Positions 6,278 through 27,192 of a stretch of DNA of 32,145 nt are shown piece by piece. This DNA comes from Sanchytrium tribonematis (lineage: Eukaryota). The number at the start of each line of letters is the position of its first letter. The stretch's first letter is position 1. The notes under the pieces are model-generated. The model had not been told where the DNA came from, ran no database searches, and saw only the letters and a program-made list of their open reading frames with translations. A program made the position numbers and the translations under genes. The stretch spans positions 1-32,145 of the forward strand of contig JADGIG010000045.1 of NCBI GenBank assembly GCA_018985235.1, written 5' to 3'.

Positions 6278-7613
6278 ATGAGCGAAAATCGTCAAGCTTT
6301 ACTTGAACAAAAGAAGCGAAAATTGGCAGATCTCAGGAGACTTCGCCAAAAAAGGTATTCATCCTCAAATATTTCTGCCAATGAAAGTGTTCATAATATT
6401 CTGGAATCAATAGAGCTCCCTAATATGGAAACTGATGAGAATAAAGACAATGATATACCAGAGCCTCTTATTAAAAATCAAACTAATTTGCAAACATCCG
6501 AGTACATTCATTTTCAGATAAAACTAGACAAAATTGTATATGAAAAATCTACTCAAGCACAGGTAGAAGCACCTGAACCTGAGGATATTGAAATGAAATC
6601 AATAAGTGATGAAGGCACGATCAGTCTTTCCCCTGAAGATGAAATGCAAGATGGCAAACAAAATACTTTGCGGCTTGGAAACTCTAATCCTGTACCATTG
6701 GGTGACTTTGTCATGGAAGCCGCAAAGCGAATTGAAAATATAATGAGTATCCAGAACTCAACTAAGCATGTCTATATCTACGATCAAATTGAATTTAAAC
6801 AAGATGATGTGATTTCGTGTCAGTTTTTTAGGAATGACATTGCGTTGACTTGCGAATCTGGAATTTATTTTAGAAACTCAAAAATTTTATTATCAAATGT
6901 CACGTCTTCATTGTGTCATGAATTGATTTATTTAGGGACAGAGTATGGTTCTATACATGTATATGATTCTCGAACTTTACAATTAATTAATATTTTAAAT
7001 TATCACAAGTATCCAATCAAACAAATTGAGTTTAGCAATAATACCCTATTGTCTTTATCGGAGGATGGAGAGTTATTACTGTGGAATATCAAGATGGTTT
7101 CTGAGCCAATTGCAATGATTTCAACAAAGCCAGGAGCCTTGTGTATGGCAAAAATGCACCAGTATATTGTAGGATGCTTAGATGGCATGTACAGCGTTAC
7201 TATGCAAATGAATAATAGACCCCAAATCAATGACTCTAAATTTGAAATTGGAAGTGTTTATTCTTTGAGTGCCATGAATGAATTTGCTTTGACCGCATCA
7301 ACGGATCAAGTAAGTCTATGGCATATTCCGGTAGAATTCTTTAACGTAGACTAAACTGCCACAAATTGTTTCACCGATTAGGTCTTTTTCCATTGATGTT
7401 CCCACTGGAATTCATTGGTTAACAAGAAACAATTTTTTAATAACCAGTACAGATAAAATTTCAATTTACAATCTTCAAGGTTGGATAAACGATGTTAACG
7501 TTGATGTTACTGGGTGTATCGTAAACAGTTCAATTTTAGAGGACAACTTACTGCTATGTACCAATGAAGGCACTGTATATTGGGTAAAATTAAGTGAAGA
7601 TTTTTTTGAATAG
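6278..7613 (+). CDS. Cytoplasmic dynein intermediate chain-like WD40 protein; join(6278..7330,7350..7613), 438 aa
   Basis: N-terminal LEQKKRKLADLRR coiled coil, VYEKSTQ light-chain-binding-like motif and WD40 repeats. The 19-nt intron extends the ORF by 87 codons, ending LLLCTNEGTVYWVKLSEDFFE*. Confidence 0.75.
7331..7349 (+). other. 19-nt spliceosomal intron (phase 0)
   Basis: gtagaattctttaacgtag. Removal opens a stop-free WD40-like exon at 7350-7613. Confidence 0.85.
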
Positions 7614-7697
7614 TGCTTGTGTTCATCTTAGGCGTTGGATTCTAAATTAGATTATTTCAATAAAGTTCAATTTATCCGCTGTTTTAAATATTAGAAA

Positions 7698-9539
7698 ATG
7701 AGTCAAAATGTATGGCGAAATGCTGAAGATGAGGTTTTGAAAGCAGCAGTCATGAAATATGGAATAAACGAATGGTCGAGAATATCATCCTTGTTGACTA
7801 GAAAAACACCTAAACAATGCAAAAATAGATGGAAAGAATATCTTGATCCTACTATTAAAAAAGTAGAATGGAGCGCCGAAGAAGATGAGAAACTACTGCA
7901 TTACGCAAAATTATTTCCGAATCAATGGCGAACTATATCCACTCAATTGGAGAGAACTGCCAATCAATGTGTCGCTCGTTATCACAAATTAGTGATGCCT
8001 AGTGTGGAAAGTAATGATTTGGTTAACAAAGAACACCAAATCGATTTACTACCTGCCAGGCCTGATGCTGTTGACTTGGATGAAGCAGAAAAGGAAATGA
8101 TCTCGGAAACAAGAGCTCGGCTGGCTAATGTTCAAGGGAAAAAAGCTAAAAGAAATGCAAGAGAAAGAATGTTAGAAGAAGCCAAAAGATTGGCACTAAT
8201 GCAAAAAAAACGTGAACTGAGAGAAGCTGGAATTCATTACTTAGAGAAAGAGAGAAACCAACTTGAAGGTCCAAAGCTCGAGTATAATAAGGATATTCCT
8301 TTTATGAAAAAGCCTTCCAAAGAGATATTTGATACTATGGGAGATGACCAATCTAAGCCAAAAGAAGGGCAATTAAATGATGCGACTCGATTGGCACTGA
8401 AACGAAAGAGAAATGAAGACGCTGCTCCGAGTGAAAAAGCTGTTGATAAAGAAAATCAAATGTCTTTTGTGCAAGCCGAACAAAAGAGAAATAAGATTAT
8501 CAACTCGGCTCAAGTTAAACGCAGAAAACTTAATTTGCCTCCTCCAAAAATAGAAAAGCTAAATTTTGTAACTGTGGGTAAAAGAGCAAATCTTATAGAA
8601 GAGGAAATTTCACTTCATAAAGAACTTTCTCAGATTGATGCCGCTCCTCTGAGAAGGACTGGCGATGTTGACATAAATATGAAGCGTGGAACAGGTTTTC
8701 GCACTAACAAGGAACAGCCTGTTGAACATTTCAATCCTGCAAATGAAGAACGTGAGACTTCAAAGCATGTTTTTCCTGATATAAGAGACCTATTAAAAAA
8801 ATTACCTTCACCTAAAAATCAATTGAATGTCATTTCTGTACTGCCGAATAGACCAGCTGTCGCGGTCACAAAAGCCGTTGACCGATCTTATCTTTACAGG
8901 CTATCACAATTCGATTATGTTTCCACGCCCGTTAAATTAGGACTAATGCGACCGACGAAAATCCCAGAGGGGAGTTTCTCATTTTTCGATGACATGGAGC
9001 TTAACTCTCAAGCAAATGAGGAATTCAAATCACTTATAATATTTGACATGTTCAACAATCCATCAGATAAACAGTTGAAATTGATCGATGAGGGTATTTT
9101 AGAGGAAATCGTGCAGCCGAAGTTAGAGACAATCGACCCTGTATTTTTGGAGAAGGCAAAATTGTTGTTTTCGGAGGAATTGAGCCAACGTGACAATCAA
9201 TCTTTAATATTGCAGCCATCATTAGGGGTTGCTTTACATGTTGGAAGTGTCTTACCGTTTGGCTCCACAGTACATGATGCCCAAGAAATCACTGAAGAAA
9301 CTCTCGACGTTATCGTTCCTTTGTTAAAAAGCAAAATAGAAATGTATAAAATTGCCATTCTAGCACTTGGGCAAAAACTCCCAAGTTTTTTAAATGAATC
9401 TACAGTTGCTCTTTATTCGGCAGTCAAAAAACGGGAAGTTGAACTTGATACAGAAATCAACGCATTAAACTTTGAGAAAAAAATAATCAAAGATCGTATC
9501 ACATTTCTTCGATCTAAATGTTTGCATCAGCAATTTTAG
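7698..9539 (+). CDS. CEF1: Pre-mRNA splicing factor Cef1/CDC5L (NTC/Prp19 complex)
   Basis: Myb repeats [28 protein letters not shown] and the conserved [26 protein letters not shown] segment. Confidence 0.93.
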
Positions 9540-25461: not shown

Positions 25462-25481
25462 ATTAAGTAAATAATACAATA

Positions 25482-27192
25482 TCAAATATATCCGGCGCCT
25501 TCAAACATATCTTCGATCAAAACTTGGAATTCCGTTCCATTCAATTTAAGATATTTTACATACGGCTCTGGAATTCTAAATTAGTTACGAATACCGAGAT
25601 GACATGGCGTTGTACTCCAACATTAACTTGTCTTTTAATGATGACTTTAACATTGATCGCAATTGAGGGTCTATAAGTCGAACAGCTTTTTGAAGCTTTT
25701 GGGCATCCTCAAAATAGCTGTAGATTTGTTTAGACTTGTCTTTGAAAGCTTTTTCTTCTAGCGTTTTTCGAGCTTCCTCAATGCTTTTCTCTACAATAGA
25801 CCAGCAAGTCAAATAACCATCGAAGTGGGAGTGAAATTTGGTTGTTATCAATTTAGCTGTAGCATCGTTTACATATTCCTTTAAAGTGGTATTTTCGTTT
25901 ATAACATTTTGAATAAATGTAAGATTATTTAGAGCGAATACTCTACGGTGAAGATCATGCTGAAAATATTTTGCAGAGTCATCAATTAATTTGCAACATT
26001 CTGCGAGTAGCGAAGATAAATATTCGCTTGTATTTTGGTGATGAGTTACAAATAACTCGACCCACTCATCAACGTTTTGATCATGCTCGAGTAATTTGCG
26101 AATAAAAGTTATCGACAGATGAACACCCTCGTGAATAGTTCCATCTTGCTGCGGTTTAGAAGGGTTTTCATTAATTTTAGGATCAAAAAATTGGCCAGAG
26201 GCTTGTAAAAAATGCTGCTCATTTTTGATTATAATATTTTGCTTCTCAGTAATTCCTTCAAAACTATTGATGATCATTCTAAAATCACTGCGAATACCAT
26301 TGATGTTTTGAAGAAATATAAGAAATCCAGCCATTGCCTTTTGTTTTTTCATTTCTTTTAGATCTCGAATCGCTAATTCCACGGAGGAATTTAACAAATC
26401 AAACGCGTTTTTGGTGATTTCGTCAAAAGTTTTATGAACCACGCTTGCAACTCGAAAGATACAATCTGCAAACTTTCTTTCATTTTGAAATATGATCGCG
26501 GACCATTCCATCATGGACGGAAATTGATCGATGTATCCACTAGATGTCGGGGACTTGGGTTCGCTTCCAATCGAGCCTCTTTTGACAAAAGCATCTGGAC
26601 CTAGCGGTAACAATGACTCATAGATGAATTTCGCTCGAAGACTGTGAAAATCTTTTGAAAACTCAAAATCGGCAGACCCATCATATATTGTTGCGGCTAA
26701 CTTTTGAATGAATTCTAATGCTTCGTCCTCAACAATAGCTTGATCTTCGGCACCGTTTCGAATTATAGTCGGAATATCAAGTGGTTCGGAAACCTGTCTA
26801 ATTTTACTCATAAATAAATTGCTTAATTGTAACAAACCAACTTTACGGAGCTGTCTTAAAGACACAATGTTTTTTTCTGATCCTTTCCAGGGATTTTCAC
26901 TTAAAATTTTAATTGCATTTTGAATTCTATTTAAAGAATCCAAAAATGGTTGAACGTCAGTACCAACACCTCTTGTAATCAATTTTTCTTCTCTTTGTGA
27001 TGTTTTTAGAGAGTCCAATAAAATATCCAAATAATCTAGACACTTTTGACTGTTTTGAAGAGCAACCGAGTGCTTAGCAGTCTTTTGGTTAATTTTGGTG
27101 AAAGAATCAGTTAAATGTTGCACTTTTGTTATTAGAAAGTCACTACTATGTTGGGCCTGAGTTTTTAATTGATTTAGCTTTTCCAATTCCAT
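25482..27192 (-). CDS. EXO70: Exocyst subunit Exo70; join(complement 27192..25595,25575..25482), about 563 aa
   Basis: PQQDGTIHE, VFALNNLTFI and DPQLRSML. The intron restores the family-like end YVKYLKLNGTEFQVLIEDMFEGAGYI*. Confidence 0.85.
25576..25594 (-). other. 19-nt spliceosomal intron (phase 2)
   Basis: gtattcgtaactaatttag on the minus strand. It contains a canonical-looking branch site, ACTAAT, followed directly by TTAG. Confidence 0.88.

Follow-up and report, generated by a model that had tools for sequence, protein, structure and literature searches.

Introns of 19–21 nucleotides with a putative branch adenosine at position −6 in a sanchytrid fungus

Introns of 15–21 nucleotides (nt) are known from heterotrichs, mikrocytids and one nucleomorph (PMC10245619), and motifs in which the branch site is fused to the acceptor from Giardia, Trichomonas and Spironucleus (PMC6679479). 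We analysed 32,145 nt of DNA from Sanchytrium tribonematis (contig JADGIG010000045.1; this whole stretch is the window), in which six genes each carry a putative intron of 19 or 21 nt ending in T-W-A-Y-K-TAG, with an A, the candidate branch point, at the sixth base from the 3′ end (−6). Sanchytrids are a fungal group, parasites of algae. No paper on sanchytrid introns or on matching tiny fungal introns was found by a search that left most subscription journals outside it, and in the available text of the sanchytrid genome paper the word 'intron' occurs solely in one reference title (PMC8371127).

The −6 geometry is already known; the novelty lies in the lineage and, among fungi, in the size. 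In Yarrowia lipolytica, also fungal, the branch motif lies 2 nt before the terminal AG, with A at −6 and no pyrimidine tract, but its introns have a median of 204 nt, ACTAAC in 71% and a GTGAGT donor, whereas those described here measure 19–21 nt and have a degenerate core and a GTR donor (PMC2483917). Stentor coeruleus shares the putative branch A at −6 (position 10 of 15 or 11 of 16 nt), a weak branch consensus, a GUA donor and AT-richness, and like the annotation of the sanchytrid Amoeboradix gromovi it keeps U2AF and SF3b; it is a ciliate with 8806 introns of 15–16 nt and a 10–11-nt loop (PMC9505925), whereas coding sequence in the window carries about 0.2 introns per kb, of 19–21 nt. An earlier note on this DNA had pointed to the likeness to Stentor, and rightly, since A stands at −6 in both Stentor length classes (PMC9505925). 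In microsporidia, which are parasitic fungal relatives, TAATT directly precedes a very near AG; the E. cuniculi core is TAAYTT in introns of 22–76 nt, and the search motif used was GTA[AG]GT...TAATT N(0-4) AG (PMC2483917, PMC3629993, PMC3486916). Microsporidia differ in a strict GTAAGT-type donor, longer introns and a strongly reduced spliceosome, whereas the window donors are weak and the factor list of a relative is largely complete.

Other lineages share the size. Mikrocytos mackini (16–17 nt) and the chlorarachniophyte nucleomorph (18–21 nt), neither of them opisthokont, have a narrow length class at the lower limit; the nucleomorph introns also have a median of 19 nt and a GT(A) donor, but they are dense and carry no branch signature, and the Mikrocytos spliceosome is very reduced (PMC10245619, PMC2483917). 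Myxobolid and dicyemid introns (median 22–27 nt) belong to parasitic opisthokonts with a GTa donor, no tract and a retained U2AF; they exceed the window introns in length, and the distance of their A's from the AG grows as the intron lengthens (PMC13644364), while in the window the A seems tied to the AG. By length, below 30 nt and narrowly distributed, the window introns fall with the ultra-short class of heterotrichs, mikrocytids, nucleomorph and myxobolids. Their motif is not novel, being the usual branch core (T-x-A-Y) at a spacing known from Yarrowia and Stentor. They share with fused-branch introns a fixed branch–AG distance and the lack of a tract (six of six in the window and three of three decidable relatives, the branch being inferred), but they lack the strong extended donor and branch consensus of that class (PMC2483917, PMC6679479). 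They would work like the introns of Yarrowia, Trichomonas, Giardia and Spironucleus, although we do not class them together.

The six introns and their putative branch points are as follows.

4263..4281 (+): proteasome alpha-3 (PSMA4) intron, 19 nt, phase 1, gene 3641-4400; putative branch A 4276
7331..7349 (+): first WD40-gene intron, 19 nt, phase 0, gene 6278-7613; putative branch A 7344
11628..11648 (+): katanin p60 intron, 21 nt, phase 0, gene 11154-12344; putative branch A 11643
13520..13538 (+): second WD40-gene intron, 19 nt, phase 0, gene 12377-14204; putative branch A 13533
23636..23654 (−): BAR-domain (Rvs161/amphiphysin-like) intron, 19 nt, phase 0, gene 23336-24143; putative branch A 23641
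25576..25594 (−): Exo70 intron, 19 nt, phase 2, gene 25482-27192, with ACTAAT; putative branch A 25581

The range 7331..25594 given in the earlier note covers five of these, the proteasome alpha-3 intron lying outside it. The six 3′ ends it quoted are present as written, as is ACTAAT in Exo70, and T at −8, A at −6, Y at −5 and the terminal TAG are invariant in all six GT-AG inserts, three of which end TAATTTAG. Its description of the donor as merely GT(A/G) with no conserved +5 G also holds: GTA occurs five times and GTG once, and +5 is T in four, A in two and never G. Five introns measure 19 nt and one 21 nt.

Homologues support four of the six junctions (proteasome alpha-3, katanin, BAR and Exo70), removal of the insert restoring a conserved protein. 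In the proteasome gene excision leaves ...SSDK|LEV..., which is colinear with the homologues in fungi and algae, and similarity is lost at the same codon in all five close-relative clusters or members (P0121, P0001/P0123, P0002, P0124 and P0003). The katanin intron sits within the Walker A motif and ends in an in-frame TAG; its removal gives GPPGTGK|TML. In the BAR gene the intron-less relative P0248 reads KMPI|QEQEA over the exact junction, and a 19-nt insert occupies the same place in A. gromovi (P0246) and in P0247. Exon 2 of Exo70 carries the conserved Exo70 C-terminus. Donors giving 13 and 28 nt likewise keep the Exo70 frame, and a hidden Markov model of 34 homologues does not pick out the 19-nt form (13 nt, 228 bits; 19 nt, 225; unspliced, 221; 28 nt, 220; 40 nt, 216). 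The A. gromovi register does so, P0252 reading through as R-Y-F-N-L-I-stop where the window has R-Y-S-stop-L-I-stop. P0253 and P0294 reveal only the donor side of this intron; the split pair P0295/P0253 is a one-codon break of P0294 and not an intron.

For the two WD40 genes the reading frame provides the evidence. Gene 6278-7613, which we take to be dynein-1 intermediate-chain-like (its Pfam match is WD40 only), becomes a single frame of 438 amino acids on removal of 7331..7349, which fuses two open reading frames (ORFs) at a fixed acceptor; the 19-nt form was preferred over a 40-nt form because it would preserve a WD-like V-S-L-W strand. In gene 12377-14204 (602 amino acids) 13520..13538 is the sole GT-AG of up to 45 nt that restores the frame. 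PDB searches gave no validation of the junction in gene 6278-7613 or of that in Exo70.

Introns are sparse, at six per 29,586 coding bases or 0.20 per kb; the density in Allomyces is 1.30 per kb (PMC8476143). Their distribution is also patchy, the katanin intron being absent from all four close relatives, A. gromovi included, which read straight through, the BAR intron from P0248 and, apparently, the Exo70 intron from P0296. Since the window is sister to the four relatives, the katanin case corresponds to one gain or one loss.

Whether the shared 3′ end exceeds chance was assessed by 100,000 shuffles of the intron interiors. For A at −6 in all six p was 2.6e-4, for an A column invariant at any position 0.004 and for the best six-column information content 5e-5, whereas a T column invariant at any position had p=0.41; because the interiors are 58% T, the T's at −8 and −3 are weak alone. 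The signal is more than chance and lies mainly in the A and in the block as a whole. Across the window A occurs at −6 of 1124 of 3597 AGs (31%) and the full motif at 17 of 3597. Against the branch motif WCTRAY (PMC2483917), T-x-A-Y matches in six of six, TRAY in four and the full CTRAY in one.

Since the introns may at first have been picked partly by motif, we enumerated for each gene all frame-restoring GT/GC-AG pairs of up to 45 nt. The quoted acceptor proved to be the first AG beyond intron position 4 in every case, and alternative donors exist in four genes. A post hoc rule, GTR-N(8-11)-TNAYNYAG (19–22 nt), finds the six introns and nothing else on the sense strands; without the R it also finds three exonic matches, starting GTC or GTT. 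T at −8 separates the introns (six of six) from exonic look-alike acceptors (1 of 12; Fisher p=0.0004, uncorrected for AT content), and exonic A-6/Y-5/YAG is marginally depleted (13 observed, 20 expected, p=0.04). One segment fitting the 3′ motif, 6915-6935, codes for a WD40 strand and was rejected.

Information from outside the window came from the proteins of relatives. The ORF finder behind the published sanchytrid proteomes took no account of introns (PMC8371127), so that proteins read into the introns and their peptides reveal intron codons. In the BAR gene V-L-L-T-N-L of A. gromovi and V-I-F-I-H-V of P0247 both decode to 19 nt (score 54 against at most 17), forcing A at −6 and Y at −5, with A or C at −7. 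If the acceptor is the stop of the A. gromovi Exo70 peptide, which ends L-I-stop, the bases at −8, −6 and −5 must be T, A and T. A is thus at −6 in three of three decidable orthologous introns (background 0.26-0.31). The proteasome alpha-3 peptide of P0003 also decodes to 19 nt (score 106 against at most 19), with C or G at −7, so that W at −7 is not invariant among relatives. In the other proteasome relatives the read-through stops at intron nt 12-14, after AAY or TAY (P0121, P0002), or at nt 15-17, after TAY or TGY (P0001/P0123, P0124), and these stops would fit an RY-TRA branch core in introns of 19 and 22 nt. A decoded length of 19 nt is found in three relatives' introns (P0003, P0246 and P0247), a small sample. 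From these comparisons we infer that the junctions are real and that sanchytrids share the 19-nt length with A at −6.

Two further features bear on how the splice sites may be chosen.

11623..11628 (+): bypassed donor cag|GTAAAG, 5 nt upstream of the katanin donor
15927..15945 (+): Vps41 exonic look-alike, 19 nt, GTA...GAATTTAG, A at −6, TTTAG end, G at −8; not an intron

The bypassed katanin donor matches the U1 consensus at 7 of 9 positions and the used donor aaa|GTGGAT at 4 of 9; splicing from the 11623 donor would remove 26 nt, shift the frame and cost the protein its Walker A lysine. Katanin is the best evidence here that spacing may outrank donor strength, and supports a choice based on length. 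The Vps41 look-alike lies inside an open frame of 933 amino acids and a Pfam beta-propeller match, and its removal shifts the frame. Spacing is thus insufficient, as this coding 19-mer differs from an intron only by G at −8. The earlier proposal that sites are chosen largely by distance therefore keeps a role for distance (katanin) but not distance alone (Vps41).

We consider it probable that these are ordinary major-class introns shrunk to near the minimum, in which the A at −6 would be the branch point and would anchor the choice of both ends. U2 small nuclear RNA (snRNA) and BBP/SF1 would read the degenerate core, the T at −8 corresponding to the U that usually precedes the branch A by two bases. 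The acceptor would be the first AG after the branch; this AG lies 3 nt behind the A, leaving no space for a pyrimidine tract, as had been noted, and no scanning would be needed. The donor would be a GTR 13–15 nt before the branch A (13 in 19-nt introns, 15 in katanin), with spacing outranking the strength of the U1 match, and the lariat loop would measure 14–16 nt. The earlier placement of the A at position 14 of 19 fits the five 19-nt introns but not katanin (21 nt, A at 16), and a constant 14-nt loop is not supported, because katanin would give 16 and two PSMA4 relatives 17. The spliceosome is predicted to keep U1, U2AF and SF3b; Slu7 and Prp18, docking factors of the second step, would be dispensable at this spacing and may be lost.

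The first alternative counts the branch from the donor, at about 12–14 nt, so that the fixed −6 would be a by-product of near-uniform length. Five of the six introns are 19 nt long, where both rulers coincide, myxozoan A's shift from the AG with growing length (PMC13644364), and position 12 of the katanin intron is indeed an A that also lies in a TTTAT. The 21-nt intron nevertheless has T at 14 and keeps the whole −8..−1 pattern at its 3′ end, in two PSMA4 relatives the RYTRR core lies 3 nt farther from the donor, and 16-nt Stentor introns keep −6 (PMC9505925). We regard a donor-based ruler as improbable.

It is slightly less probable still that T-W-A-Y-K-TAG is an extended acceptor read by U2AF/BBP, like the C. 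elegans TTTCAG, with branching loose or at a neighbouring A such as −7. Canonical U2 pairing is indeed weak, the introns matching the TACTA-C core at 2-4 of 6 positions, a second A stands at −7 in four of six introns, and both U2AF subunits are annotated in A. gromovi. Yet no A in the 3′ half other than that at −6 is invariant, −7 being T in two introns and C in one relative; the core matches WCTRAY (PMC2483917), and the relatives show AAY-TRR, TAY-TRR and ACN-AAY cores.

Selection by distance alone in a spliceosome without U1, U2AF or SF3b, the stronger version of the earlier proposal, bears on the parts list. We consulted the eggNOG table of PMC8371127 (supplementary file 4; the A. gromovi sheet and the first rows of a second species), searching by names and by KEGG/KOG numbers. 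The weak donors without a +5 G would suit such a spliceosome, and under the names and numbers used the A. gromovi table has no row for U1C, Prp39 or SF3B6, nor for Slu7, Prp18, SMU1 or Yju2. The predicted loss is not supported, as there are rows for U1-70K, a U1A/U2B''-type protein, Prp40, Luc7-like, U2AF65, U2AF35 and BBP/SF1, and for SF3B1, SF3B2, SF3B3, Prp21, Prp8, Prp16/22-family helicases, Prp17, Cwc22, Cwc25 and Isy1. Stentor (PMC9505925) and myxozoans (PMC13644364) retain U2AF with tiny introns, and the Vps41 look-alike, although of the right length, is not an intron. This reading is very unlikely.

That the inserts are assembly errors or pseudogene lesions is scarcely credible: the evidence is from DNA, and the one public DNA run with the window may be its source, but the six GT-AG inserts are near-equal in length and lie in housekeeping genes, other genomes have interruptions at these positions too, and exon 2 is conserved behind the break. 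Two further classes were rejected, U12-type introns since their long invariant donor and branch box (RTATCCTT and TCCTTAAC) is missing and donor positions +4 to +8 vary, and Ire1-cleaved HAC1-type introns (about 20 nt, with non-GT-AG ends in paired stem-loops of one gene) since these are GT-AG and lie in six unrelated genes.

Several observations count against a branch-anchored −6 design. The set comprises just six introns, each with a putative branch point, in one 32-kb window. The enrichment of A at −6 over the AT-rich background (6/6 in the window and 3/3 decidable relatives against about 0.3) stands for a small set in which the relatives' introns are orthologues sharing descent. P0003 has A at −6 only if its Ser codon is TCA, and the stop in P0001/P0123 and P0124 could equally well be the terminal TAG of a 17-nt intron, which would have T at −6. 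Avoidance of the full motif in exons is not significant (3 observed, 4.6 expected, p=0.32). Katanin has a second TTTAT with A at position 12, so that 3′ anchoring rests on one ambiguous case. Both WD40-gene junctions are supported by frame continuity, and in gene 6278-7613 a 40-nt form from a caa|GTAAGT donor at 7310 (8/9) also restores the frame. A possible seventh intron in gene 22439-22996, either 22942-22978 (−; 37 nt with a GTAAGT donor) or 22942-22960 (19 nt), has C at −6 in both forms and could be a counter-example if this coiled-coil gene starts at 23015; it was set aside because it has no homologue and an internal Met gives a normal divergent gap.

The loss of Slu7 and Prp18 is a better prediction than that of U1, U2AF or SF3b, since both are dispensable in yeast at such a spacing: Slu7, Prp18 and Prp22 are all unneeded for the second step when branch and acceptor are less than 7 nt apart (PMC3392075), and Slu7 at up to 9 nt (PMC10158995). 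By this analogy they may have been lost in sanchytrids. Against this, the absence is from a relative's proteome that is intron-blind, 92% complete and about half annotated, and C. merolae is without Slu7 and Prp18 despite long spacings.

A Rfam scan of the window found no U1, U2, U4, U5 or U6 snRNA. Its sole match, to U6atac at 24250-24359 (−; 21.4 bits, gathering 33, E 0.21), is below threshold, antisense to the start of the gene at 24322 and probably due to chance. Gene 7698..9539 (+) has two Myb repeats (Pfam, residues 5-66). From its N-terminal sequence we take it to be Cdc5L/Cef1-like, of the spliceosomal NineTeen complex (NTC) core, and hence a sign of a spliceosome. On A. gromovi contig NODE_116 BBP/SF1 is annotated on adjacent ORFs p11 and p12, as if the gene itself had a tiny intron.

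With these introns a fungal phylum would join the small number of lineages whose introns approach the minimum size. Nineteen nt lies under both the E. cuniculi minimum of 22 nt (PMC3629993) and the median, also 22 nt, of the shortest introns in animals (PMC13644364), and the sanchytrid introns are likely among the shortest of fungi. That a sanchytrid fungus, a yeast and a ciliate all have the −6 spacing suggests a steric lower limit for the distance from branch to acceptor, and a seemingly full early spliceosome acting on a 14-nt loop is of interest for how U1 and U2 can both be accommodated on one tiny intron.

Intron-blind calling has left six public entries for intron genes (P0122, P0125, P0245, P0297, P0298 and P0299) as fragments ending or starting at the introns, so that claims about sanchytrid gene content deserve a re-check. 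Sanchytrids have been reported without axonemal and inner-arm dyneins (PMC8371127). The best matches of exon 2 of gene 12377-14204 are axonemal WDR63/DNAI3 (E 4.6e-10) and IC140, then WDR60, and this dynein intermediate-chain-like gene, split by a tiny intron, could have been missed in the published gene content. We offer as a tentative proposal, and would not expect to hold in full, that sanchytrid introns, with a mode of 19 nt, are the shortest among fungi and animals and are defined by a branch-anchored ruler overriding U1 match strength, that Slu7 and Prp18, which a branch fixed 3 nt before the AG would make superfluous, were specifically lost whereas U1, U2AF and SF3b were kept, and that introns missed in public proteomes make some reported gene losses split genes.

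In trees built from katanin (16 rows) and from proteasome alpha-3 (18 rows, 2 rows omitted) the window groups with A. gromovi and with environmental relatives, the support being 100/100, and the proteasome alpha-3 ORF shares a 90% cluster with A. gromovi, named fungi reaching at most 69%; the comparisons indicate that the window is sanchytrid DNA close to A. gromovi. A metagenome scan with a 50-column sanchytrid alignment returned seven loci at 43-62% identity, none of them sanchytrid. The sequencing-run search for the window gave one DNA run and, among the runs listed, no RNA run. Contigs of this run (X1) over 1-14500 and 14001-32145 show no joints and, among the rows listed, no intron variant; the run is not an independent check, as it may be the window's own source. 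Alternative contig pairs in X1 and dense differences at 8325-9365, 14386-14447 and 21325-21399 suggest two haplotypes.

The window is highly compact, 25 gene models covering 94% of it with intergenic gaps often below 40 nt. Long same-strand gaps occur at 5388-5552 (165 nt) and 29056-29342 (287 nt), with no Rfam match in either. The BAR gene and Exo70 (window 23336-27192) share a contig in A. gromovi also (ORFs p3 and p1), so that their neighbourhood is conserved. At 18525-19940 (+) lies a Sodium:sulfate symporter (DASS) family transporter (Pfam E 4.6e-57).

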